DNA of 64,000 nt, from NCBI GenBank assembly GCA_964417875.1, contig CAYQJU010000001.1:39675-103674 (forward strand). Reading direction: 5' to 3'. The stretch's first letter is position 1. Each line of letters starts with the position of its first letter. Of the stretch, positions 10,858-49,911 are shown piece by piece. The DNA is from an uncultured Steroidobacteraceae bacterium. Its GTDB lineage: Bacteria > Pseudomonadota > Gammaproteobacteria > Steroidobacterales > Steroidobacteraceae. The notes below the pieces were generated by a model. The model was not told the DNA's origin. It saw nothing but the letters and a program-made list of their open reading frames with translations, and did no database searches. The position numbers were made by a program, and so were the translations under genes.

Positions 10858-11571
10858 CTACAGGCTGACCCGCACCTGGTCGCGGGACTCCACCTGGCCC
10901 TCGACGATCTTGCGCGAGGTGAGGTTCAGCACGCGCACCCGGCCGGTGGGCCCGGCGTCCTGGATCGCTTCGCCCTGGGCCCGCACTTCCAGGCCGCCAA
11001 TGCTGGCCACCAGCGTCACGCGCTGTCCGCGCCGCACCAGGATGTCGGCGGCAAGCAGGTCGCTGGTCAGCGGCGTGCCGGCCGGAACCGGCCGCTTCAG
11101 GTGCCGCCCGTCCAGCTGTCTGATGTCGTCGATATAAGAGGAGGAAAGTCCCGGCACGCGCACCGTGCGAAGTTCCACGTCCGCACTGCCGACCTTGGCA
11201 TTGCGGGCCAGCGAGCGCTGCAGCACCAGCACGGGCAGTTCGGTCTCGACGCGCACCGGCACATACACCGTCCAGCGTGGACTCTCGCAGCTGACGCCCA
11301 CGGCAATCCGCGCCGACAGCGTGGTGGTGGAAGGCGGCAGCTGCGCTGCGGGTCGCTGCGAACAGCGGGGCAGGCGCAGCCGCGGGTCCATGGCGTCGGC
11401 GCTGGCATGCACTTGCCCTGTGCCCTCGGGCACCTGCGCCACGACGAAGGCCTCGGCCACCTGGCGCAGCTCATCGAGTGGATGCGGAGGCGGTGTCTGC
11501 GCATGGACCGTGCCCGCCGCGCACAGCGGCAGCGTCAGGATCCAGACGATGCGGGACTTGAATCGCAACAT
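10858..11571 (-). CDS. flgA: Flagellar P-ring assembly chaperone FlgA
   Basis: ATG at 11571 gives the signal peptide MLRFKSRIVWILTLPLCAAGTVHA and a C-terminal SAF-like domain (RRGQRVTLVA...GRVRVLN). The listed ORF 10858..12345 is an artefactual extension running through the flgB promoter. Confidence 0.85.
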   Translation of the reverse strand: MLRFKSRIVWILTLPLCAAGTVHAQTPPPHPLDELRQVAEAFVVAQVPEGTGQVHASADAMDPRLRLPRCSQRPAAQLPPSTTTLSARIAVGVSCESPRWTVYVPVRVETELPVLVLQRSLARNAKVGSADVELRTVRVPGLSSSYIDDIRQLDGRHLKRPVPAGTPLTSDLLAADILVRRGQRVTLVASIGGLEVRAQGEAIQDAGPTGRVRVLNLTSRKIVEGQVESRDQVRVSL

Positions 11572-11701: not shown

Positions 11702-11715
11702 GTGATGCGCATCAC
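11702..11715. promoter_or_regulatory. Perfect 14-bp palindrome GTGATGC|GCATCAC in the flgA-flgB divergent region (candidate activator site)
   Basis: The centre lies 64 bp upstream of the GG of the flgB sigma-54 promoter and 111 bp upstream of the GG of the flgA promoter. It belongs to the GTGAY-N4-RTCAC motif family seen at other sigma-54 promoters here. Confidence 0.5.
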
Positions 11716-11770: not shown

Positions 11771-11785
11771 TGGCACGCCAGTTGC
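11771..11785 (+). promoter_or_regulatory. Sigma-54 promoter of the flgBCDEFGHIJ operon
   Basis: TGGCAC-GCCAG-TTGC is a perfect consensus. It lies 38 nt upstream of the GTG start, which has a GGAG SD. Confidence 0.8.
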
Positions 11786-16121: not shown

Positions 16122-16795
16122 ACCAGCGCCGCTGCATGATTCTGGCCGCCGGCGTTGCCGCCGCGTGGCTGCTGGCCGGATGCGCCACCACCCAGGGCTA
16201 CGAGGACTTCTCGGCCACCTGGCCGGAGGAGCTGCCGCGCGACGCACCGGCCAGCGGTTCGATCTACCAGGCCGGCCACGATGTGCCGCTGTTCGAGAAC
16301 GTGGTGGCCCATCGCGTGGGCGACACGGTGACCATCATCCTCTCCGAGCAGACTGCCGCGCAGAAGAGCTCCAGCACCTCGACCTCGAAAGACACATCCG
16401 TGGACATCCCCGCGCCGCTGTTCGGCGGCTCGCCGTTGACCATCGGCGGCCGGGAGATCTCCGCCAGCATGGAGAACAGCCGCAGCTTCGAGGGATCGGG
16501 TGACAGCAGCCTGTCGAACCGCCTGCAGGGCAACGTCACCGTGACCGTCGCGAAGCGGCTGTCGAACGGCAACCTGGTCGTGCGCGGCCAGAAGTGGATC
16601 GAGATCAACCAGGGACGCGAGTTCGTGCGCATCCAGGGTGTGATCCGGCCGCTGGATATCCAGCCTGACAACACCATCGCCTCCTACAAGGTGGCCGACG
16701 CCAGCATCGCCTATGGCGCGCGCGGCGCGCTCGCCGACGCCAACCGGCCGGGCCTGCTGTCCCGCTTCTTCAACTCCATCTGGAACCCGCTGTGA
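16118..16795 (+). CDS. flgH: Flagellar L-ring lipoprotein FlgH
   Basis: 225 aa with the lipobox LLAGC and [11 protein letters not shown] and [18 protein letters not shown] motifs. Confidence 0.94.
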
Positions 16796-25642: not shown

Positions 25643-26038
25643 ATGTCGGCTTACCCAAACAGATCCAGTCTCGCCGCCTATCGTTCCGTCGCTGCACACA
25701 GCGGCGTGGATGCGGCCGATCCGCACCGTCTCATCACCATGCTGATGGACGGCGTGCTGGAACGCCTGGCCTCCGCGCGCGGAGCCATGGACCACGGCGA
25801 GACCGAGGCCAAGAACCGCCTCATCCACCGCGCCGTGGCCATCGTCGAAGAGCTGCGCGCCAGCATCAATGTGCAGGCGGGCGGCCAGATCGCCGCGAAC
25901 CTTGCGGACCTTTATGACTACTGCGGCCGCCAGCTGGTGCGTGCCAACCTCGAGAACCGCGGCGAGCTGCTCGATGAGGTCGGCAACCTTCTGCGCGAGA
26001 TCCGCGGCGCCTGGGTGCAGATCCCGGCCGCGAAATGA
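25643..26038 (+). CDS. fliS: Flagellin export chaperone FliS
   Basis: 131 aa. AAYRSV...PHRLITMLMDGVLERL...AKNRLIHRAVAIVEELRASIN is the typical FliS four-helix bundle. Confidence 0.93.
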   Translation: MSAYPNRSSLAAYRSVAAHSGVDAADPHRLITMLMDGVLERLASARGAMDHGETEAKNRLIHRAVAIVEELRASINVQAGGQIAANLADLYDYCGRQLVRANLENRGELLDEVGNLLREIRGAWVQIPAAK

Positions 26039-26289
26039 CCGGGTCCGCCGCGATGACTTCCGAAGGGCGGTTGCTGGCGCAGGGTGTGACGGCGTCCACA
26101 TTCCAGATCGTGCGCGGCGTCCTCGCGGCGGCCGACAGTGAAGCCATCCGCCGCCTGATGGCCGAGCGCCAGCGCCTGCTGGGCGAGCTGGCACGCTACA
26201 TGAATACAGAAAGGCATGTCGGTTCACTGGCGGCCCTGCGGGCCTCGGTGGCCGAATCCGACCGGACGCTGGAGATGCTGCTCACATAG
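26035..26289 (+). CDS. Small helical flagellar-cluster protein, possibly a FliT-like chaperone
   Basis: 84 aa. Its ATGA overlaps the fliS stop, so the genes look translationally coupled, and it holds the position FliT has in related clusters. No diagnostic motif was recognised. Confidence 0.4.
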   Translation: MTGSAAMTSEGRLLAQGVTASTFQIVRGVLAAADSEAIRRLMAERQRLLGELARYMNTERHVGSLAALRASVAESDRTLEMLLT

Positions 26290-26318
26290 TCCACTCCCGG
26301 TTGCACAATGGAGCGGAC

Positions 26319-26918
26319 ATGTACGAAGGCGTCGATACCATCATCCTGAACAACGAGCTGGCCTACCAGGACCTGCTGCCGGTGGCCTTCAAGCCGCTGG
26401 CGCGGCCAATGGAACTGCCGGCGGTCGCCGCGCTCACCGACCGCAATGTGCGCGTGCTGCAGGTCTGCGCGGTGCTGGAAGAGCAGGGCGCCGTCGAGAA
26501 GAAGGATGATGCCTCGCCGAATGCCACCGATGTGGCGCGCCTGGAGGTCAAGGTGAACCTGCTGCTCGATCTGGTCGGTCAGCTGCTGGCCGCGCAGGTT
26601 CCCCGTCCGGTGCCGGCGCTGGTGCGCTTCAATGCACTCGGCGCACTGTGGAAATCGGCCAATCCGCCGCGCGTCGGCCAGCAGGGGCTGCTGGAGATCT
26701 GGCTGCGCGACAGCCTGCCGCAGCCGCTGGCATTGATTGCCAATGTCACCCATGTCGCCGCCGATGGCCATGTGAAGGCCAGTTTCGTGCCGCCGGGTGA
26801 AGCGACCGCCGATCTGCTGGAGAAACTGGCGTTCCGCCGTCACCGGCGTCAGGTTGCCGGCTCCCGCCAGCCGCGCCGGCCGGGAAATGAGACGGCAATC
26901 ACAAGGATCCTCCGATGA
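26319..26918 (+). CDS. Atypical (tetrameric-type) PilZ-like domain protein
   Basis: ATG at 26319 is preceded by GGAG 5 nt upstream; the listed TTG at 26301 is less likely. The beta-rich ends flank a long central helix (DVARLEVKVNLLLDLVGQLLAAQ). The canonical RxxxR / DxSxxG motifs are absent. The layout resembles noncanonical Xanthomonas PilZ proteins found next to fleQ. This call is from memory only. Confidence 0.45.
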   Translation: MYEGVDTIILNNELAYQDLLPVAFKPLARPMELPAVAALTDRNVRVLQVCAVLEEQGAVEKKDDASPNATDVARLEVKVNLLLDLVGQLLAAQVPRPVPALVRFNALGALWKSANPPRVGQQGLLEIWLRDSLPQPLALIANVTHVAADGHVKASFVPPGEATADLLEKLAFRRHRRQVAGSRQPRRPGNETAITRILR

Positions 26919-26919
26919 T

Positions 26920-26934
26920 TGACGCGTTGCGTCA
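26920..26934. promoter_or_regulatory. Inverted repeat TGACGC-gtt-GCGTCA followed by CTTTTCC (weak terminator or operator upstream of the first sigma-54 activator)
   Basis: 6-bp arms, a 3-nt loop and a short T run. It starts 2 nt after the PilZ-like stop and lies 66 nt before the activator ATG. Confidence 0.3.
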
Positions 26935-27000
26935 CTTTTCCGACGCAGCAGGTTTGCGAGACTGGCCACCTTCGCAACCAACAACGAACAAACGCTGCAC

Positions 27001-28179
27001 ATGGCCACTGCTGAACTGGAAGTCCGCTCCGCGACCGTGACCCATCGGGGACCCACCGGTGAGTCCCCCCCCATCCGCCAGATCCTCACGCTGATCGACC
27101 AGGTTGCCGCGCATGACTCCAGTGTGCTGGTGCTGGGTGAATCGGGCACCGGCAAGGAAGTGGTGGCGCGCGCCATTCACAACTCCAGTCCGCGACGCCA
27201 TCGTCCCTTCATTGCCGTGAACTGCGGCGCCATTCCTGCCGACCTGCTCGAAAGCGAGCTGTTCGGACACGAGAAGGGTGCGTTCACCGGTGCGGTGGCC
27301 ACGCGCAAGGGCCGCTTCGAACTGGCCGATGGTGGCACGCTGTTCCTCGACGAGATCGGCGACATGAGCCTGCCGATGCAGGTGAAGCTGCTGCGCGTGC
27401 TGCAGGAGAAGGTGTTCGAGCGTGTCGGCAGCGCGCTGCAGTATCGCTGCAACGTGCGCATCATCGCCGCCACGCATCGCAACCTCGAGGACTCGATCAC
27501 CCGCGGCACATTCCGCGAGGACCTGTTCTACCGCCTGAACGTGTTTCCCATCGACATGCCCTCGCTGCGCGAGCGCAAGCAGGACCTGCCGGTACTGATC
27601 CGCGACTTCTCCGAAATGAACGTTGCGGCGGGCCGGGCGCGGGTGCTGCTGACGGCCGGCGCGATGGAATGCCTGGAGCGCTACAGCTGGCCTGGCAATG
27701 TGCGCGAGCTGGGCAACCTGATCGAACGGCTGTCCATCCTCTGCGGCGGCCGGCCGGTCGGCGCCCAGGATCTGCCGCCGCGCTATCGTCCGGCCGACTG
27801 GACGCCGCCGGCGGACGATGATCGCGTGCCCGAAGCTGCTCCGCTCCTGATTGCCGCCGCGCCCGCGCCGACGGCGGCCATCGCCGATGCCGGCGCCCCG
27901 GCGACCGAGCGCGAGCACGCGACGCGCCTCTCCGAACGCGAAGTGCTGCTGATGCTCGAGGACCCGGCCACCGGCAGCGGCACGGTGTTGCCGCCCGGCG
28001 GCATCGATCTGCGCGCGCATGTGTCCTCGATCGAGGAATCGCTGATCCGCCAGGCGCTGGAGCGCAGCAATGGCGTGGTCGCGCAGGCCGCAAGGCTGCT
28101 GCAGCTTCGCCGCACCACGCTGGTGGAGAAGTTGCGCAAGTTCGGCATCGGCGGCGTCGACGAAGCGACGGCCGATTGA
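27001..28179 (+). CDS. Sigma-54-dependent transcriptional activator, FleQ-like AAA+ and HTH domains, no N-terminal FleQ/receiver domain
   Basis: 392 aa with Walker A GESGTGKE, the GAFTGA loop, an FleQ-like tail LPPGGIDLRAHVSSIEESLIRQALERSNGVVAQAARLLQLRRTTLVEKLRKFGI, and only about 25 aa before the AAA+ core. Confidence 0.88.
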   Translation: MATAELEVRSATVTHRGPTGESPPIRQILTLIDQVAAHDSSVLVLGESGTGKEVVARAIHNSSPRRHRPFIAVNCGAIPADLLESELFGHEKGAFTGAVATRKGRFELADGGTLFLDEIGDMSLPMQVKLLRVLQEKVFERVGSALQYRCNVRIIAATHRNLEDSITRGTFREDLFYRLNVFPIDMPSLRERKQDLPVLIRDFSEMNVAAGRARVLLTAGAMECLERYSWPGNVRELGNLIERLSILCGGRPVGAQDLPPRYRPADWTPPADDDRVPEAAPLLIAAAPAPTAAIADAGAPATEREHATRLSEREVLLMLEDPATGSGTVLPPGGIDLRAHVSSIEESLIRQALERSNGVVAQAARLLQLRRTTLVEKLRKFGIGGVDEATAD

Positions 28180-28198
28180 CGTTTCCGGCTTCCATTCC

Positions 28199-28212
28199 GT
28201 GACACGCGTCAC
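28199..28212. promoter_or_regulatory. GTGAC-ACGC-GTCAC inverted repeat just upstream of the second activator's sigma-54 promoter
   Basis: It matches GTGAY-N4-RTCAC. The centre lies 28 bp upstream of the promoter GG. Confidence 0.4.
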
Positions 28213-28231
28213 GCGATGGGCAGCCCCTGGC

Positions 28232-28247
28232 CGGCACGGAACTTGCT
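28232..28247 (+). promoter_or_regulatory. Sigma-54 promoter of the second sigma-54 activator gene (probably also fliE-fliK)
   Basis: CGGCAC-GGAAC-TTGCT. TTGC is followed by 13 nt (tctctcctcggtc, no SD) and then ATG 28260. Confidence 0.7.
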
Positions 28248-28259
28248 CTCTCCTCGGTC

Positions 28260-29258
<999 letters not shown>

Positions 29259-29640: not shown

Positions 29641-31242
29641 ATGAGTGCCGACGTTCCTGCCGTTCCAATGAAGATGCCTGCCGCGATGGCTGGCCTGAAG
29701 CCGCTGCTGATCCTGATCGGCGTCGCAGCGGCAGTGGCTGCAGGCGTGGGCATCGCGCTGTGGTCTCAGGCGCCCACCTACAGCCTGCTGTTCGGCAACC
29801 TGAGTGATACCGATGCGTCGCAGCTCACGCAGTCGCTGGACCAGTCCGGAATTCCCTACCGGGTCGAGCATGGCGCGGTGCTGGTGCCGGCCAATCGCGT
29901 CACCGAGGCGCGCATGGGTCTGGCCGCGAAGGGCCTGCCGTCCTCAAGCGGCTTCTCGCTGATGGAAAAGGATCCGGGATTCGGCGTCAGCCAGTTCATG
30001 GAGAACGCGCGCTACCAGCACGCCATCGAGACTGAACTGGCGCGTACCATCGCCAGCCTGAAGCCGGTGCAGGGTGCGCGCGTGCACCTGGCCCTGCCGC
30101 AGCAGTCCGCGTTCGTGCGCGACCGCCGTCCGGCCAGCGCCTCGGTGTTCCTGCAGCTCAATGCCGGCGCGCGCATCGATCGCGGCCAGGTGGCGGCCAT
30201 CGTGAACCTGGTGGCATCGAGCATTCCCGAACTGGGCGCCGAGCATGTGACCGTGGTCGACAGCCAGGGGCGACTGCTGTCCTCGCCCGAGGAAGACAGC
30301 GAGTTCGCCGCGCGTGAGCAGCAGCTGGAGCTGGCGCGGCGCATCGAGGAGGATTATTCGCAGCGCATCGTGTCGCTGCTGACCCCGCTGCTGGGACCGG
30401 GCCGCGTGCGCGCGCAGGTGGTGGCGCAGATCGAACTCTCCAGCACCGAGGAGGCGCGCGAGCAGTATGGCCCGCAGAGCCAGGTGGTGCGCAGCGAGCA
30501 GACCAGCGAGGATATGAGCCGCACTGCAGGCGGACCGCAGGGCGTTCCCGGCGCGCTGACCAACCAGCCACCGGAGGGCGGCACGGCGCTGCCGCCGGGC
30601 GTGCAGGCGCAGGACGATGCGCAGACGGCTGCTGCCACGACTCCCGGGAGCAGCTCGCGGCAGGCCACGCGCAATTACGAGATCGACCGCACCGTTGCCT
30701 ATACCCGCATGCCGGCCGGTCGCCTGCAGCGCCTGTCGGCCGCCGTGGTCATCGACAACCTGCGCACCACGGCTGCCGATGGCAGCGTGGCCGAGACGCC
30801 GCTGACCGAGGAGCAGCTCGAACGCATCACCGGGCTGGTGCGCGATGCCGTCGGCTTCGATGACGGGCGCGGCGATCGCGTGTCGGTGGTGAACCAGAGC
30901 TTCCTGCAGGAAGCGGTCGAGGTGCCCGAGATCACCGCGCCACCCATCTGGGAGAACCCGATGGTGCGCGACATTGCCCGCCTTGTGGCCGGCCTTGTGA
31001 TCATCCTGGCGCTGCTGATGTTTGTGGTGCGGCCGCTGCTGCGCAACCTCGCCGCGCCGGTGAAGGCCGCGCTCGTGCCGCCGCCACCGTTGCCGGCGCC
31101 GCAGGCCGCGGGTGCTGCCCCCACCCGTCCTGCCGACACCATTGCCTATGAACAGCAGATCGCGCAGGCGCGCGGCCTGGTGGCCAAGGATCCGGCGCGC
31201 GTGGCGCAGGTCGTCAAGGAATGGGTGGAGAAGGATGACTGA
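29641..31242 (+). CDS. fliF: Flagellar MS-ring protein FliF
   Basis: 533 aa with an N-terminal TM segment, YSLLFGNLSDTDASQLTQSLDQSGIPYR, a second TM segment near the C-terminus and a C-terminal FliG-binding tail. Confidence 0.95.
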   Translation: MSADVPAVPMKMPAAMAGLKPLLILIGVAAAVAAGVGIALWSQAPTYSLLFGNLSDTDASQLTQSLDQSGIPYRVEHGAVLVPANRVTEARMGLAAKGLPSSSGFSLMEKDPGFGVSQFMENARYQHAIETELARTIASLKPVQGARVHLALPQQSAFVRDRRPASASVFLQLNAGARIDRGQVAAIVNLVASSIPELGAEHVTVVDSQGRLLSSPEEDSEFAAREQQLELARRIEEDYSQRIVSLLTPLLGPGRVRAQVVAQIELSSTEEAREQYGPQSQVVRSEQTSEDMSRTAGGPQGVPGALTNQPPEGGTALPPGVQAQDDAQTAAATTPGSSSRQATRNYEIDRTVAYTRMPAGRLQRLSAAVVIDNLRTTAADGSVAETPLTEEQLERITGLVRDAVGFDDGRGDRVSVVNQSFLQEAVEVPEITAPPIWENPMVRDIARLVAGLVIILALLMFVVRPLLRNLAAPVKAALVPPPPLPAPQAAGAAPTRPADTIAYEQQIAQARGLVAKDPARVAQVVKEWVEKDD

Positions 31243-31919
31243 TGAGCAGCGCCGCCATGCAGTTCGTTGAGCCGCTGCGGGATCTGCCCGTCACCGACAC
31301 GCGCGCCTGGAGCGCGCCGGTGTTCGATGGCGATGCCATGCCCGGCGGGCACCGCCGCGACAGCGACGAGCGGCGCGAGGAAGAGCGACGCGTGATGGCC
31401 GAGGCGCAGGCCCGCGGCCATGCCGCCGGACTTGCCGCCGCGCAGCGCGAGATCAATGCGAAGCTTGCCGCGCTGGAAGCACAGCGCCGGACGCTGACCG
31501 CCGCGCTCGACGCACTGTCACGGCCGCTGGCGCAGCTGGACGATGCGCTGCACGAACAGATTGCATTGCTGGCGATGCGCATCGCACGTGCGGTGGTGCG
31601 CCGCGAACTGCGCATCGATCCCTCGCAGGTGATCGGCATCGTGCGTGACACCGTTGCGCTGCTGCCGGCCGCGACGCGCGCGCCCCGCGTGCTGCTGCAT
31701 CCTGAAGATGCCGCGCTGCTGCGCGAGCGGGTGTTGCCGTCAGGACCGGAAGCGGCCTGGTCCATCATCGAGGATCCGACCCTGGGGCGCGGCGATTGCC
31801 GCGTGCTCACCGATCACGCGCAGGTCGATTCGCGGGTCGAGACACGACTGAACGAAGCCCTCACCGCATTGCTCGGTGAGGAGCGCGCCCGGCCACGCGA
31901 CGAAGGAGATTCCGCATGA
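31242..31919 (+). CDS. fliH: Flagellar export ATPase regulator FliH
   Basis: 225 aa with an N-terminal Trp motif (RAWSAPVF), a charged coiled coil and a C-terminal LHPEDAALL...VDSRVETRL. It overlaps the fliF stop (TGATG). Confidence 0.85.
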
Positions 31920-34847: not shown

Positions 34848-34863
34848 TGGCACACGCCTTGCA
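34848..34863 (+). promoter_or_regulatory. Sigma-54 promoter of the fliL-fliN-fliOPQR-flhB operon
   Basis: TGGCAC-ACGCC-TTGCA is a perfect consensus. It lies 49 nt upstream of the fliL ATG. Confidence 0.8.
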
Positions 34864-34911: not shown

Positions 34912-35403
34912 ATGTCCGAACAAGCCGCCAGCGATGAAACTCCCCGCAAGTCCCGCAAGGGCCTGATCTTCACCATTGCCGGCGTGCTGCTGGTGGCCGG
35001 CGGCGCCGGCGCCTGGTTCGCCCTCGGCGGCAAGTCGTCGGACGCAGACGCGAATGCCGAGGCCGCCGCGGTGGCGAAACTTCCGCCGCAGTTCGTGGAA
35101 CTGGATCCGCCCTTCGTCGTGAATTTCCAGCCCGGCTCCTCGGCGCGCTTCCTGCAGGTGGCGGTGCAGGTGATGACGCGCGATCCGCAGGCGGTCGCCA
35201 GGCTCCAACACCTCGCGCCCATCATCCGCAATGACCTGCTGCTGCTGTTCGGCAACAAGCAGGTGGCAGAGGTCGCCACACCCGAAGGCAAGGAAGCACT
35301 GCGCACGGCCACGCTGGACGCGGTGCGCAAGGTGCTGGCTTCCGAGGGCGGCGATCCCGAGGCCCTCGAGGCCGTGTATTTCACCAGCTTCGTCATGCAA
35401 TAG
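34912..35403 (+). CDS. fliL: Flagellar basal-body-associated protein FliL
   Basis: 163 aa with a single N-terminal TM segment and PFVVNF...RFLQVAVQV...IRNDLLLLF motifs. Confidence 0.9.
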   Translation: MSEQAASDETPRKSRKGLIFTIAGVLLVAGGAGAWFALGGKSSDADANAEAAAVAKLPPQFVELDPPFVVNFQPGSSARFLQVAVQVMTRDPQAVARLQHLAPIIRNDLLLLFGNKQVAEVATPEGKEALRTATLDAVRKVLASEGGDPEALEAVYFTSFVMQ

Positions 35404-35415
35404 GACACCTGCGCA

Positions 35416-35766
35416 ATGAGCACCGATCTTTCCGCGAATGCTGAAGGCGCGCATCCCGATGCGGTGGCCGACGACGTCCTGATGACGGCACCGCCGGTGC
35501 CGCGAGACGTGAACCTGGACGTCATCCTCGACGTGCCGGTCACGCTGTCGCTGGAGGTGGGCCGCACGCGCCTGCCGATCCGCAGCCTGCTGCAACTGAA
35601 CCAGGGTTCGGTGGTGGAACTGGAACGCGCCGCCGGCGAGCCGCTCGATGTCTACGTGAATGGCACGCTGGTCGCGCATGGCCAGGTCGTGGTCGTGAAC
35701 GAGAAGTTCGGCATCCGCCTCACCGATGTGGTGAGTCCGGCCGAACGCATCCGCAAGCTCAGGTAA
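35416..35766 (+). CDS. fliN: C-ring / export-gate SpoA-domain protein FliN (copy 1)
   Basis: 116 aa. LDVPVTLSLEVGRTRLPIRSLLQLNQGSVVELERAAGEPLDVYVNGTLVAHGQVVVVNEKFGIRLTDV is a canonical FliN SpoA domain. The gene follows fliL directly, with no fliM between them. Confidence 0.9.
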   Translation: MSTDLSANAEGAHPDAVADDVLMTAPPVPRDVNLDVILDVPVTLSLEVGRTRLPIRSLLQLNQGSVVELERAAGEPLDVYVNGTLVAHGQVVVVNEKFGIRLTDVVSPAERIRKLR

Positions 35767-38045: not shown

Positions 38046-39161
38046 ATGTCTGAATCCGACCGCAGCGACCGTACAGAACAACCTACACCGAAGAAGCTGG
38101 AGGATGCCCGCCGCGAGGGCCGGGTTCCCCGTTCGCGTGAGCTGACCACGGCTGCGGTGATGGTGACCGCCGGCGCGGTGCTGACCGTGACCGGCGATTC
38201 CATCGGCGCACAGCTGGGCGATGTGATGCGCGGCGGGCTGAGTGTGTCACGCGAGCAGGCCTTTGATGTCACCGCGATGACACGCACCTTCAGCCAGCTG
38301 GCGGCGGCTGCGCTGTATTCCATCGCGCCGGTGCTGCTGGTGACGCTGCTGGCAGCGCTGGCCACGCCGCTGGCGATCGGCGGCTGGGCGGCCAGCAGCA
38401 AGGCGATCGCGCCGGACTTCAAGCGCCTCTCGCCGCTGTCCGGCATCAAGCGCATGTTCAGCCTGCGCAGCTGGGTGGAACTGGGCAAGGCGCTGGCCAA
38501 GTTCGCCGTGGTGGCCATTGCCGCCACCGTGATCCTCAAGCTCAGCGCCGACCGGCTGATGGGACTGGGCTCCGAACCCATCAACACCGCCATCGGACAC
38601 GCCATCACGCTGTCCGGCCAGGCGCTGATCGGCCTGACCGCAGCGCTGGTGCTGATCGCGGCGGTGGACGTGCCCTTCCAGATCTGGCAGTTCCGCCAGG
38701 ACATGCGCATGACGCGTGATGAAGTGCGCCGCGAGCACAAGGAGGCGGAGGGCTCCCCGGAGGTCAAGGGCCGCATCCGCGCCCTGCAGCGCGAGATGGC
38801 CGAGCGCCGGATGATGGAGGAGGTCCCGCGCGCCGACGTGATCGTCGTGAATCCGACGCACTACGCGGTGGCGCTGCGCTATGACGACAAGACCATGCGC
38901 GCCCCGCGGGTGGTGGCCAAGGGCGTGGACCTGATGGCGCTTCGAATCCGTGAAGTGGCTTCCGGACACAACGTCCCGATCTTCGAGGCGCCGCCGCTGG
39001 CCCGCGCCTTGCATCGCCATGTGGAGATCGGTGACGAGATTCCGTCGGGGCTGTATGCCGCGGTCGCCCAGGTGCTGACCTACATCTTCCAGCTGCGCGC
39101 TGCGAAGGCAGGCAGGGCACCCCGGCCGGAACGTCCAACGATCGACATGCCCCAGGCGTGA
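38046..39161 (+). CDS. flhB: Flagellar export switch protein FlhB
   Basis: 371 aa with the N-terminal DRTEQPTPKKLEDARREGRVPRSRE and the NPTH autocleavage site (VVNPTHYAVAL). Confidence 0.96.
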   Translation: MSESDRSDRTEQPTPKKLEDARREGRVPRSRELTTAAVMVTAGAVLTVTGDSIGAQLGDVMRGGLSVSREQAFDVTAMTRTFSQLAAAALYSIAPVLLVTLLAALATPLAIGGWAASSKAIAPDFKRLSPLSGIKRMFSLRSWVELGKALAKFAVVAIAATVILKLSADRLMGLGSEPINTAIGHAITLSGQALIGLTAALVLIAAVDVPFQIWQFRQDMRMTRDEVRREHKEAEGSPEVKGRIRALQREMAERRMMEEVPRADVIVVNPTHYAVALRYDDKTMRAPRVVAKGVDLMALRIREVASGHNVPIFEAPPLARALHRHVEIGDEIPSGLYAAVAQVLTYIFQLRAAKAGRAPRPERPTIDMPQA

Positions 39162-44913: not shown

Positions 44914-45680
44914 TGGCCCGGCGCCGGCGTCAACGGCCCGAGGAGCACGCCAACCACGAGGGATGGGCCATTCCCTATGGCGATCTTGTGACCTTGCTGC
45001 TGGCCTTCTTCGTCGTGATGTATGCCATCTCACAGGTCAACGAGGGCAAGTACCGCGTGCTGTCCGATTCATTGAACGCCGCATTCCGCGGCGAGCCCAC
45101 CACCTTCGATCCGGTGCAGGTGGGCCAGCCGGCCGCCAGCACCGTGGCCGCCCCCATCGTGCAGCTGCCCGAGGAGATCCGCAGCATGGCCATGCGCCAG
45201 CTCGCGCAGCAGGCCATGGAAGCGATGGATCCCCTGATCCGCCAGGGCCTGGTTGATGTGGAAGCCGGCGAGGGCAGGCTGACCATCGCCATCCGCTCGG
45301 ACATCCTGTTTGCCTCCGGCTCGGCATCGCCCTCGGCGCAGGCGCAATCGGTGGCGCGGCTGCTGGGCGAGGTGCTGCGCGCCTTCCCGGTCAACATCAG
45401 GGTGCAGGGCCATACCGACAATGTGCCGGTGGTATCGGGCAGCTATCCCTCCAACTGGGAATTGTCGGCGGCGCGCGCCGCAAGCGTGGTGCATCTGCTG
45501 GTGGCAGGCGGCGTCGCGCCGCAACGCCTGGCCGCTGTCGCCCATGGCGAATATCAGCCCGTGCTTCCGAACGACACGCCCGACGGACGCAACGCCAATC
45601 GCCGCGTGGTGCTGCTGGTGGAGGCCGGCGATGGCGCCGACGCAGCGGCCGCCGTGCAGGCCACCGCAGATTCCACGTGA
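44913..45680 (+). CDS. motD: Second flagellar stator protein, MotB family (MotD-like)
   Basis: 255 aa with WAIPYGDLVTLLLAFFVVMYA and an OmpA-like domain (VQGHTDNVP...NRRVVLLV). It overlaps the motC stop. Confidence 0.88.
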   Translation: MARRRRQRPEEHANHEGWAIPYGDLVTLLLAFFVVMYAISQVNEGKYRVLSDSLNAAFRGEPTTFDPVQVGQPAASTVAAPIVQLPEEIRSMAMRQLAQQAMEAMDPLIRQGLVDVEAGEGRLTIAIRSDILFASGSASPSAQAQSVARLLGEVLRAFPVNIRVQGHTDNVPVVSGSYPSNWELSAARAASVVHLLVAGGVAPQRLAAVAHGEYQPVLPNDTPDGRNANRRVVLLVEAGDGADAAAAVQATADST

Positions 45681-45690
45681 CCCGCATCAC
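45677..45690. promoter_or_regulatory. GTGAC-CCGC-ATCAC inverted repeat overlapping the motD stop codon
   Basis: It matches GTGAY-N4-RTCAC perfectly. The centre lies exactly 64 bp upstream of the GG of the downstream sigma-54 promoter, the same offset as at flgB. Confidence 0.5.
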
Positions 45691-45745: not shown

Positions 45746-45761
45746 TGGCACGCTTCCTGCT
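45746..45761 (+). promoter_or_regulatory. Sigma-54 promoter of the DUF2802-HDOD gene pair
   Basis: TGGCAC-GCTTC-CTGCT. It lies 55 nt upstream of ATG 45816, which has an AAGGA SD. Confidence 0.65.
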
Positions 45762-47150: not shown

Positions 47151-47176
47151 GGCGCCGGTTTTCCGGCGCCACTTTG
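47151..47176 (+). terminator. Hairpin / weak terminator after the HDOD gene
   Basis: GGCGCCGG-tttt-CCGGCGCC forms a perfect 8-bp stem followed by ACTTTG. The T tract is short. Confidence 0.4.
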
Positions 47177-47189
47177 TGATCCGCTTCAC
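47176..47189. promoter_or_regulatory. GTGAT-CCGC-TTCAC repeat next to the fliG sigma-54 promoter
   Basis: It has one mismatch to GTGAY-N4-RTCAC. The centre lies 20 bp upstream of the promoter GG. Confidence 0.35.
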
Positions 47190-47200
47190 ATCCATCGCGC

Positions 47201-47216
47201 CGGCACGGTGTTTGCA
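47201..47216 (+). promoter_or_regulatory. Sigma-54 promoter of fliG-fliM-fliN2(-cheY)
   Basis: CGGCAC-GGTGT-TTGCA. TTGC is followed by 13 nt (attgaacacagcg, no SD) and then ATG 47229. Confidence 0.65.
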
Positions 47217-47228
47217 TTGAACACAGCG

Positions 47229-48215
47229 ATGGCAACTGAAATCCAATCCACCCGAAGTGCCGCCGTGCTTCTGCTCGCATTGGGCGAAGGCGAGGCGGCC
47301 ACCGTGCTCAAGCACCTGGACGCCAAGGTCGTGCAGCGCCTCGGCACCGCCATGGCGCAGCTGAAGTCTGCCTCGCGCGAGGAAGTCAGCGAGGTGGTGG
47401 GCGGTTTTGTCGAGACGATGGAATCGCAGGCCGACATCAAGGTCGGCTCCGATGATTACATCCGCAAGGTGCTGACGCAGGCACTGGGCGATGAGCGCGC
47501 CAGCGGCATCATCGACCGCATCCAGATGGGCCGGCGCTCCAAGGGACTGGACGTGCTGAAGTGGATGGAGCCGCGCGCCATCGCCGAGGTGATCCGCCTC
47601 GAGCATCCGCAGATCCTTGCCATCGTGATCTCCTACCTTGATCCGGACCTTGCCGCCAAGGTGCTCAACGAGCTGCCCAAGGACGTGCAGGCCGAGGTCA
47701 TCATGCGCATCGCGCAGCTCGATGGCGTGCAGCCCTCCGCGCTCGGCAAGCTCGACGAGATGATCGAGAAGCAGATCGCCGGCAAGGGCAGCAGCGTGTC
47801 GGCCAACCTCGGCGGCCCGAAGACCGCCGCCAGCATCCTGAACTTCATGCCGGCCGCAACGCTCGACGAGCTGCGCCAGGCCGACGAGGCGCTGACCATG
47901 CGCCTGCAGGACCTGATGTTCACCTTCGAGGACATGATCAACATCGACGACAAGGGCATCCAGGCGATCCTTCGCGAGATCGATTCGGCGCGCCTGGTGG
48001 TGGCACTGAAGGGTGCGGACGCCTCGCTGGTGGACCGCTTCCTGAAGAACATGTCCAGCCGCGCCGCCGAGATGCTGAAGGACGACATGGAGGCGCGCGG
48101 ACCGGTGCGCCTCTCCGAAGTGGAAGAAGCGCAGCGCGAGATCCTCGCCACCACGCGCCGCCTGGCCGAAGCCGGCTCCGTGGTCATCAACGCCGGCAGT
48201 GAGCAGTACGTATGA
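47229..48215 (+). CDS. fliG: Flagellar rotor/switch protein FliG
   Basis: AAVLLLALGEGEAATVLKHL, EHPQILAIVISYL, MFTFEDM and the C-terminal torque-helix region (MSSRAAEMLKDDME...EEAQREI) are all present. ATG 47229 is preferred because GTG 47208 lies inside a sigma-54 promoter consensus. Confidence 0.93.
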   Translation: MATEIQSTRSAAVLLLALGEGEAATVLKHLDAKVVQRLGTAMAQLKSASREEVSEVVGGFVETMESQADIKVGSDDYIRKVLTQALGDERASGIIDRIQMGRRSKGLDVLKWMEPRAIAEVIRLEHPQILAIVISYLDPDLAAKVLNELPKDVQAEVIMRIAQLDGVQPSALGKLDEMIEKQIAGKGSSVSANLGGPKTAASILNFMPAATLDELRQADEALTMRLQDLMFTFEDMINIDDKGIQAILREIDSARLVVALKGADASLVDRFLKNMSSRAAEMLKDDMEARGPVRLSEVEEAQREILATTRRLAEAGSVVINAGSEQYV

Positions 48216-49222
48216 GCGGGGAAATCCTCGACCAGGAAGAGATCGACGCCCTCGTCAACGGCGTGCAGAGCGGTGCGGTCGACGTCGACCCGAAGCCGGC
48301 CGACGACGTGCGCACGGCGCGCGACTACGATTTCAGCACCCAGACCCGCATCGTGCGCGGGCGCATGCCCACGCTCGAGATGATCAACGAGCGAATGGCC
48401 CGCGCGCTGCGCATGTCGCTGTTCAACATGTTGCGCCGCTCGCCGGAGATCTCGGTGCAGGGCATCTCCACGCCGAAGTACGCCGAATACGTGGCGACGC
48501 TGGCCGTGCCCACCAGCCTGAACCTGATCCGCTTCCAGCCGCTGTCGGGCACCGCTCTGATGATCTTCGAGGCCAAGCTGGTGTTCGCGCTGATCGATGT
48601 GTTCTTCGGCGGCACCGGCCGCCACGCGAAGATCGAGGGCCGTGACTTCACGCCCACCGAGAACGACATCATCCACCTGCTGATGGAGCAGGCGTTCGCG
48701 GCGGTGGAGGAGGCCTGGGCGGCCATCCTGCCGGCGCGAATCGAGTACATCAACCGCGAGGTCAATCCGAACTTCGCCCACATCGTCAGCCCCACCGAGA
48801 TCGTGGTGGTCAGCCGGCTGCGCGTGGAATTCGAGGGCCGCGGTGGGGAGATCCACCTGACGCTGCCCTATTCGATGCTCGAGCCGCTGAAGGACACATT
48901 ACGCGCCGGCATGCAGACCGATCGCGCCGACCGCGAGGAGCGCTGGTCGCAGCTGCTGCGCAACGAGCTGGAGGAATCGGAGGTCGACCTGGTCACGCTG
49001 CTGGGCACTGCCCAGACCACCGTGGCACGGCTGATCGACATGCGCCCCGGCGATGTGATCCCGTTCGAATTCGATGGCCAGGCCACCGTGCTGGCCGACG
49101 GCATCCCGCTGTTCTGGGGTGAACTGGGCCAGCAGCGCGGATGCCAGGTCGTGCGCGTGCAGCAGATGAACGCCCGCAAGACGGGCAATTCCCTGGATGC
49201 CTTCGTGAGGAAGTCAGCATGA
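48212..49222 (+). CDS. fliM: Flagellar switch protein FliM
   Basis: 336 aa with the N-terminal CheY-P-binding LDQEEIDALV-type motif, a middle domain (GGTG motif FFGGTGRH) and a C-terminal SpoA-like domain. Confidence 0.94.
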   Translation: MSGEILDQEEIDALVNGVQSGAVDVDPKPADDVRTARDYDFSTQTRIVRGRMPTLEMINERMARALRMSLFNMLRRSPEISVQGISTPKYAEYVATLAVPTSLNLIRFQPLSGTALMIFEAKLVFALIDVFFGGTGRHAKIEGRDFTPTENDIIHLLMEQAFAAVEEAWAAILPARIEYINREVNPNFAHIVSPTEIVVVSRLRVEFEGRGGEIHLTLPYSMLEPLKDTLRAGMQTDRADREERWSQLLRNELEESEVDLVTLLGTAQTTVARLIDMRPGDVIPFEFDGQATVLADGIPLFWGELGQQRGCQVVRVQQMNARKTGNSLDAFVRKSA

Positions 49223-49491
49223 GCACCGCCCCACAGGTCGAGGCCGCAGCGGACGTGGTCCTGGATGTCAGCGTGAGCCTCGCCCTGGAAGTGGGGCGTG
49301 CGCGCATGGCCATCCGTGACTTCCTGCAACTTGCGCCCGGATCGATTGTCGAACTGGAACGCCCCGCCGGCGATGCGCTCGATGTCTATGTCAATGACCG
49401 GCTCGTCGCACACGGCGAGGTGGTGATGGTCAACGACCGCTATGGAGTGCGCTTCACCGAGGCCGTCGATGCGGCCGAAATGCACCGCTGA
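49219..49491 (+). CDS. SpoA-domain switch protein FliN (copy 2)
   Basis: ATG at 49219 overlaps the fliM stop. The 90-aa product reads LDVSVSLALEVGRARMAIRDFLQLAPGSIVELERPAGDALDVYVNDRLVAHGEVVMVNDRYGVRFTE and is roughly 55-60% identical by eye to copy 1. Confidence 0.88.
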   Translation: MSTAPQVEAAADVVLDVSVSLALEVGRARMAIRDFLQLAPGSIVELERPAGDALDVYVNDRLVAHGEVVMVNDRYGVRFTEAVDAAEMHR

Positions 49492-49524
49492 TCCGATTAA
49501 CCGGCTGGAGATCCCGCAAACGAC

Positions 49525-49911
49525 ATGAATGCTGCAGTGCGATTCCTGGTTGTCGACGACTTCTCGACCATGCGCCGCATGGTCCGGAGCGTGCTGCACG
49601 AGCTGGGCTACAACGACGTCGTCGAGGCCGACGACGGCAATGCGGCGCTGCCCATCCTGAAGCAGGGCAGCATCGATTTCCTGGTGACCGACATCAACAT
49701 GCCGGGGATGCAGGGCATCGAGCTGCTCAAGGCGGTGCGTGCGGATCCGAAGCTGTCGAAGCTGCCGGTGCTGCTGGTGACGGCGGAGGCCAAGCGCGAG
49801 CAGATCGTCGAGGCGGCGCGCGCCGGCGTGAACGGCTATGTGGTCAAGCCCTTCACGGCGCAGGTACTGAAGGAAAAGATCGAGAAGATCCTGGCCAGCG
49901 GCCACAATTGA
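49525..49911 (+). CDS. cheY: Chemotaxis response regulator CheY
   Basis: 128-aa single REC domain with the DD acidic pocket ([10 protein letters not shown]), a phospho-acceptor Asp in [11 protein letters not shown], and T and K residues (LLVTAEA, YVVKPF). Confidence 0.92.

Follow-up and report, generated by a model that had tools for sequence, protein, structure and literature searches.

Leaderless messenger RNAs (mRNAs) are known from genes with sigma-70-type promoters whose -10 box abuts the open reading frame (ORF), and they have been described in Deinococcus-Thermus (PMC12340547), mycobacteria (PMC4633059), and Xanthomonas (PMC3300014). In Deinococcus-Thermus, a fixed distance between the -10 box and the ORF, which implies leaderless expression, is established (PMC12340547). 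In Xanthomonas, a GC-rich gammaproteobacterium, 14% of mRNAs are leaderless, and 82% of these start with AUG (PMC3300014). Among flagellar genes, the FleQ/sigma-54 class II promoters of Pseudomonas include PflgA and PfliE (bioRxiv 10.1101/2021.08.29.457346). Here, we describe a complete flagellar and chemotaxis gene cluster of a soil bacterium, contained in a stretch of 64,000 nucleotides (nt) of contig CAYQJU010000001.1 (the window; G+C content of 67.8%). The closest relatives bear names such as 'Steroidobacteraceae bacterium'. Three sigma-54 promoters in this window, those of flgA, of a sigma-54 activator gene (activator 2), and of the fliG operon, lie 13 nt upstream of an ATG and leave no Shine-Dalgarno (SD) sequence in between. 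We propose that their transcripts probably have only 0-4 nt ahead of the AUG and undergo translation as leaderless or near-leaderless mRNAs.

Promoters, spacers, and start codons

All three promoters match GGCACGNNNNTTGC exactly, with weighted scores of 20.5-21.5 of 21.5, and their GG and GC doublets are exactly 10 base pairs (bp) apart in a TGGCACG-N4-TTGCW-like arrangement (Table 1). A sequence-only reading that preceded this analysis had placed the three promoters 13 nt before an ATG and had counted six sigma-54 promoters in the cluster. We found the motifs, coordinates, and spacings to be as given there, and an unbiased weighted scan recovered the same six intergenic sites (flgA, flgB, activator 2, fliL, DUF2802, and fliG). 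The number of motif matches is by itself not above chance (17 observed and 14.3 expected, with one mismatch or fewer). An ATG stands at offset 13 in 3 of the 17 matches while every other offset holds two or fewer (binomial P = 0.003 for one given offset), and only those three ATGs open long ORFs with the high G+C content at third codon positions that is typical of coding sequence. The three remaining promoters are controls with a leader, for which the earlier figure of 38-55 nt agrees with our measurements of 38 nt at flgB, 49 nt at fliL, and 55 nt at DUF2802; the distance at flgB is 37-39 nt in relatives and its sequence is conserved. A GGCACGG variant of the -24 element had also been proposed as a shared feature of the three short-spacing promoters. 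This variant is not kept in orthologs, where GGCACGC and GGCATGG occur, and we do not consider it meaningful.

We found that the three spacers are indeed SD-less. Their duplex energies with the anti-SD sequence are +1.4 kcal/mol (flgA), -1.1 kcal/mol (activator 2), and +0.4 kcal/mol (fliG), against a cluster median of -5.2 kcal/mol, which puts them near the weak end of the 45 gene starts. The spacers are pyrimidine-rich or unrelated in sequence. Start codon usage follows the same division that the earlier reading had noted, since roughly a quarter of the cluster genes start with GTG or TTG while all 18 short-spacing loci found in the window and its relatives (flgA, fliG, and activator 2) start with ATG.

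The position of each ATG is critical to these distances, and our data indicate that the start-codon assignments of all three genes are secure. Upstream of activator 2 there is an in-frame TGA at 28200, and no ATG, GTG, or TTG occurs from there to 28260, which bears out the claim that this stop excludes other starts upstream. The next downstream candidate falls within the Walker A region, and the AAA+ domain, which interacts with sigma-54, begins at residue 20. The N-terminus of FlgA (MLRFKSRIVWILTLPLCAAGTVHAQ) aligns with its orthologs and forms a typical signal peptide, MLRFKSR-IVWILTLPLCAAG-TVHA; the annotated ATG is needed because it supplies the charged n-region. FliG (328 residues) aligns to TIGR00207 from residue 5. 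Overall, the position of the ATG relative to conserved N-terminal residues is kept in all loci.

We also considered that the start codons may be misassigned, such that the true start lies downstream and the annotated 5' coding part is a leader. Gene callers do disagree among relatives, with FliG called at 328-336 residues and the activator at 331-350 residues, and in L086, L091, and L097 the start that was called is not the homologous ATG. However, all of these disagreements are upstream extensions into the promoter and none is downstream. A downstream start would also place the activator start within its Walker A region, deprive FlgA of its charged n-region, and ignore both the FliG alignment and the conserved ATG position, and we regard this explanation as scarcely credible. 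The automatic calls that begin FliG or FlgA upstream do so inside or just after the promoter (L086 2501, L091 2501, and L097 1501), with the called ATG located within the -24 box in L086, 4 nt after TTGC in L097, and 7 nt after TTGC in L091. Such miscalled starts would lie outside the transcribed RNA.

Spacing in orthologous loci

A scan of species-representative genomes yielded 24 orthologous activator 2 loci, and three further loci from the clade of the window (76-80% protein identity) were added. L024 was left out because its activator is apparently split or frameshifted and its start is not assignable, while L005 and L008, whose starts are uncertain given long N-terminal extensions and weak SD boxes, were counted as long-leader loci. 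We found a sigma-54 promoter upstream of activator 2 in 24 of the 24 orthologous loci. The window, L001, L022, and L023 each have 13 nt between TTGC and ATG; across the clade of the window, all five activator loci are short (13, 13, 13, 12, and 12 nt), as are both loci of a second, separate clade (L022 and L023; 13 and 13 nt). The promoter is retained in approximately 19 other activator loci, where the distance is 36-48 nt, and most of these long-spacing loci have a box (GGAGG, GAGG, or GGGG) that precedes the ATG by 5-9 nt. The presence of SD-like boxes in long-leader relatives indicates that SD sequences are used in this family. Overall, the 27 activator loci are bimodal, with either 12-13 nt or 36-48 nt, and none of the 27 has an intermediate spacing. 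In a neighbour-joining tree the window and L001 fall in one clade and L022 and L023 in another, and therefore the short state either arose twice or has persisted since the root.

The spacing at flgA and fliG is similarly constrained. A metagenome scan with FlgA returned five loci only, two of them with the N-terminus. The TTGC-to-ATG distance at flgA is 13 nt in six of six loci (the window, L081, L082, L095, L096, and L097), across which FlgA identity is 56-74% and mean pairwise spacer identity is 0.50. Immediately upstream of the flgA promoter, a conserved 'ctttag' lies 11 to 22 nt from the -24 box depending on the locus, which indicates that insertions and deletions do happen close to this promoter. 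At fliG, the distances in five loci are 13, 13, 13, 13, and 16 nt with a mean spacer identity of 0.36. The promoter itself is present in all six flgA loci and all five fliG loci. The sequence-only reading had suggested examining the spacing in relatives and had named its loss, or loss of the motif, in close relatives as evidence that would count against a leaderless interpretation. Instead, the spacing holds at 13 nt (range 12-16) in 18 loci as the spacer sequence diverges, and those orthologs that are not short have a 36-48 nt leader, mostly with an SD-like box.

These distances bear on an explanation in which the sigma-54 promoters exist but most of the protein comes from longer RNAs that start upstream, the AUG is internal and used independently of an SD sequence, and the short distance is a product of compaction. 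Such RNA would come from transcription running on past activator 1 or the HDOD gene, or else from a sigma-70 or sigma-28 promoter that escaped notice. We found no sigma-70-type promoter or terminator within 26000-28400. The lack of a terminator-like site between activator 1 and activator 2 supports read-through, as does the lack of a clear SD sequence at activator 1 and a few other cluster genes, and xanthomonads have been reported to lack a consensus SD sequence (PMC3300014). However, compaction would not be expected to yield 13 nt without exception, and with free sequence, in six of six flgA loci, or a bimodal distribution of 12-13 nt and 36-48 nt. Furthermore, flgA points away from flgB, and no gene precedes it on its own strand, and the SD-like boxes of the long-leader relatives show that SD sequences are in use in this family. 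We consider read-through as the main source of these proteins to be unlikely, although it may apply to activator 2 and fliG, for lack of a terminator.

The overlap of promoter and start codon might alternatively serve occlusion, whereby the closed sigma-54 holoenzyme blocks read-through, or the spacing might be set by the architecture of activator site and promoter alone. Sigma-54 holoenzyme makes stable closed complexes, and at the activator 2 locus the distance from an upstream palindrome to the promoter is also constant (20 nt). Neither version explains why the conserved partner is the ATG that starts a gene, why it is always ATG, or why the SD sequence is missing only in the short-spacing class, and we regard both as very unlikely. 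Insulation from read-through as the sole design reason was rejected since flgA has no same-strand upstream gene.

Outside these lineages, an examination of 56 flagellar loci of other gammaproteobacteria, with 115 promoter-like motifs, gave one comparable case. In L080 (positions 16441-16470; Sediminihaliea, a different family), 12 nt separate TGGCACAGGCTTTGC from the ATG of fliK, which encodes a Flg_hook domain. It is possible that Sediminihaliea fliK is a further sigma-54 leaderless case outside Steroidobacteraceae.

Predicted transcripts and their control

Prior studies have located sigma-54 promoters relative to transcription start sites. Global 5' rapid amplification of cDNA ends in Caulobacter found that the RpoN motif GGCNC-N4-CTTGC starts at -26 and has its final C at -13 (PMC4287350), and differential RNA sequencing in C. 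jejuni placed start sites 8-13 nt downstream of GGaa-N6-tTGCTt (PMC3847290). By our reading of both studies, published sigma-54 start sites fall at approximately nt 11-16 after the C of the -12 GC. In the window promoters, the A of the ATG is the 14th nt after this C, and the published geometry thus predicts a 5' untranslated region (UTR) of 0-3 nt. The G at spacer positions 10-11, which is invariant in activator spacers, may be the initiating purine, in which case the UTR would be 3-4 nt. A UTR of 0-4 nt leaves no room for an SD sequence. Where transcription starts is inferred from known sigma-54 geometry, and leaderless translation is inferred as well.

We hypothesize that three operons, flgA(-flgM-flgN), activator2-fliE-fliF-fliH..., and fliG-fliM-fliN'-cheY, would be transcribed from enhancer-dependent sigma-54 promoters with transcription beginning at the AUG or 1-4 nt before it. 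The resulting mRNAs, without space for an SD sequence, would be translated as leaderless mRNAs are, by ribosomes that recognise an AUG at the very 5' end. Every part of the leaderless interpretation that can be tested on sequence (conserved promoters, sole plausible starts, absence of SD sequences, and spacing) was upheld, while leaderless translation is still a prediction.

Several points weigh against this hypothesis. Since sigma-54 start choice shifts by a few nt, the RNA may have a leader of 2-4 nt instead of 0; the earlier figure of 0-3 nt agrees with published start geometry. Added 5' nucleotides reportedly reduce leaderless translation in Escherichia coli, a result attributed to Krishnan et al. 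in 2010. We found no terminator between activator 1 and activator 2, and longer read-through RNAs may therefore also exist. The constraint on spacing is not absolute, given 12 nt in two relatives and 16 nt in another; a spacing of exactly 13 nt, as first described, is true of the three window promoters but not as a strict rule. Finally, the loci are related within clades and the counts are not fully independent events.

We next consider how these promoters might be controlled. A 14-bp palindrome, GTGAY-N4-RTCAC, has 11 matches in the window, four of which are just upstream of sigma-54 promoters (Table 1). These four stand at positions that relatives share, and at activator 2 the position is conserved in L001, L092-L094, L022, and L023. 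This palindrome is likely the binding site of one or both activators, neither of which has a receiver domain, and it would be unusually close to the promoter.

In long-leader activator 2 orthologs (L002-L021), the SD-like box can pair with the first ~10 nt that follow the -12 TTGC, through sequences that vary by clade (cctccc/gggagg, attcccc/ggggaat, and gatcccg/cgggatc). A shuffle test of this pairing gave a combined P of ~2e-6 (Fisher; nine clade representatives), a value that is exploratory because the representatives were picked after inspection. These ~10 nt are promoter DNA, and they are thus expected to be absent from the sigma-54 transcript and present in read-through RNA. This suggests promoter-specific unmasking of the SD sequence in long-leader orthologs. 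A tentative extension, which we consider possible but doubtful, is that translation is gated by the promoter: only RNA initiated by sigma-54 would present a 5'-terminal AUG, read-through RNA would be silent with an internal AUG and no SD sequence, and the long-leader sisters would reach the same end via SD pairing. If true, both architectures would act on translation to shield the class II operon from class I transcription.

The flagellar cluster and known systems

Table 1. Features of the flagellar cluster, with positions in the window
Feature	Position	Strand	Remarks
flgA coding sequence	10858-11571	-	ATG 11571-11569; NCBIfam TIGR03170; signal peptide from residue 1
flgA spacer ttccctcttcggc	11584-11572	-	13 nt from -12 TTGC to ATG; SD-less
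flgA sigma-54 -24/-12 promoter TGGCACGGCACTTGC	11599-11585	-	intergenic; conserved in L081, L082, L095, L096, L097
palindrome GTGATGCGCATCAC	11702-11715		between divergent flgA and flgB promoters; candidate activator site
flgB sigma-54 promoter	11771-11785	+	control with leader; 38 nt from TTGC to GTG 11824; GGAG box
activator 1	27001-28179	+	sigma-54 activator; AAA+ and HTH_8 domains; no receiver domain; FleQ-like position
palindrome GTGACACGCGTCAC	28199-28212		ends 20 nt upstream of activator 2 -24 GG; candidate enhancer site
activator 2 sigma-54 promoter CGGCACGGAACTTGC	28232-28246	+	intergenic
activator 2 spacer tctctcctcggtc	28247-28259	+	13 nt; SD-less; then ATG 28260
activator 2	28260-29258	+	332 residues; AAA+ from residue 20; HTH_8 at residues 283-321; no receiver domain
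fliL sigma-54 promoter	34848-34862	+	control with leader; 49 nt to ATG 34912
palindrome of DUF2802 promoter	45677-45690		upstream of DUF2802 sigma-54 promoter
DUF2802-HDOD sigma-54 promoter	45746-45760	+	control with leader; 55 nt to ATG 45816
palindrome GTGATCCGCTTCAC	47176-47189		10-12 nt upstream of fliG promoter -24 GG; position kept in relatives
fliG-operon sigma-54 promoter CGGCACGGTGTTTGC	47201-47215	+	intergenic; conserved in L086, L088, L090, L091
fliG spacer attgaacacagcg	47216-47228	+	13 nt; SD-less; then ATG 47229
fliG operon	47229-49911	+	fliG 47229-48215; fliM 48212-49222; short fliN-like gene within 49141-49491; cheY 49525-49911

The cluster starts with motB, motA (minus strand), flgN, flgM, flgA (minus strand), flgB-flgL, fliC, fliD, and fliS. 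Its middle part holds an atypical PilZ gene, activator 1, activator 2, fliE, fliF, fliH, fliI, fliJ, fliK, fliL, fliN, and fliP onwards, and its end holds flhB, flhA, flhF, flhG, fliA, motC, motD, DUF2802, the HDOD gene, fliG, fliM, the fliN-like gene, cheY, and chemoreceptors. Activators 1 and 2 are adjacent, both encode AAA+ activators beside the activator 2 promoter, and activator 2 is the first gene of the fliE-fliF-fliH-fliI... operon. The gene fliG is absent between fliF and fliH (29641-31919) and fliM is absent between fliL and fliN (34912-35766). Both genes are in the separate fliG-fliM-fliN'-cheY operon, and the genome therefore has two fliN-type genes. Relocated fliG and fliM were seen only in the clade of the window (including L001), and the fliG-fliM-fliN'-cheY operon also occurs in L086-L091 beside differing upstream genes (HDOD, cheB, and CBS). 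The window contains no rpoN and no Rfam match.

Activator 1, which occupies the master-regulator position, is also without an SD sequence (+0.1 kcal/mol; 26921-27003). An A/C-rich tract, caaccaacaacgaacaaacg, lies just before its ATG and an inverted repeat, TTGACGCGTTGCGTCA, lies ~65 nt upstream of the ATG; neither a sigma-70 nor a sigma-54 promoter was recognised within 26921-27003. Elsewhere, TGGCCCGCGCCTTGC is located at 38998-39012, inside the 3' end of flhB and ~165 nt upstream of the flhA GTG (39178). Although its GGCC deviates from the consensus, TGGCCCGCGCCTTGC might be a sigma-54 promoter that drives flhA from within the preceding gene, an arrangement also found in Pseudomonas.

No on/off switch in bacteria is tighter than a sigma-54 promoter, and a leaderless mRNA escapes all control through the 5' UTR. 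Their combination would mean that expression is set purely by activator-driven initiation and that translatability depends on promoter choice. If real, a fixed distance from the -12 element to the AUG would also provide a simple rule for searching genomes and metagenomes for leaderless sigma-54 genes, and the same rule could correct start calls, which gene callers got wrong for these genes in several relatives. Furthermore, this family offers natural pairs, leaderless and SD-led versions of one gene, for the study of leader gain and loss.

A full-text literature search on leaderless together with sigma-54 or RpoN gave no report of sigma-54-driven leaderless genes, and papers on Leptospira, Methylosinus, Myxococcus PexR, Sinorhizobium, Deinococcus-Thermus, Caulobacter, and Campylobacter, retrieved for mentioning both subjects, describe none and draw no connection between the two. 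The closest activator arrangement is that of FleQ and FleT in the Fla1 system of Rhodobacter (Cereibacter) sphaeroides, which likewise has two adjacent receiver-less activators, the second of which heads the fliE-fliF operon and is itself sigma-54-driven (PMC7277832). Unlike Fla1, the cluster described here has fliG and fliM outside of their usual operons, and a leaderless architecture has not been reported in R. sphaeroides. FleT of R. sphaeroides, a second activator of the type that works in a hetero-oligomer with the first, is not known to have a DNA-binding domain, whereas activator 2 retains an HTH_8 DNA-binding domain. Pseudomonas, where sigma-54 directly targets flgA and the fliE operon and where flgA and flgB run in opposite directions, resembles the window in these respects. 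It differs in the N-terminal domain of its FleQ and in FleR, a response regulator, and the study of its promoters does not mention leaderless transcripts (bioRxiv 10.1101/2021.08.29.457346).

A further likeness is to sigma-70-type leaderless genes, with which the three genes share a fixed short distance between promoter and start, the absence of an SD sequence, a strong preference for AUG, and a spacer whose length is kept while its sequence varies. Unlike the promoters of those genes, the window promoters are of the -24/-12 class, which depends on an enhancer and stays silent unless an AAA+ activator is present, and a fixed 13 nt separates the -12 TTGC from the start codon, compared to 6-7 nt from the -10 box. 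To our knowledge, the sigma-54 version has not been described previously.
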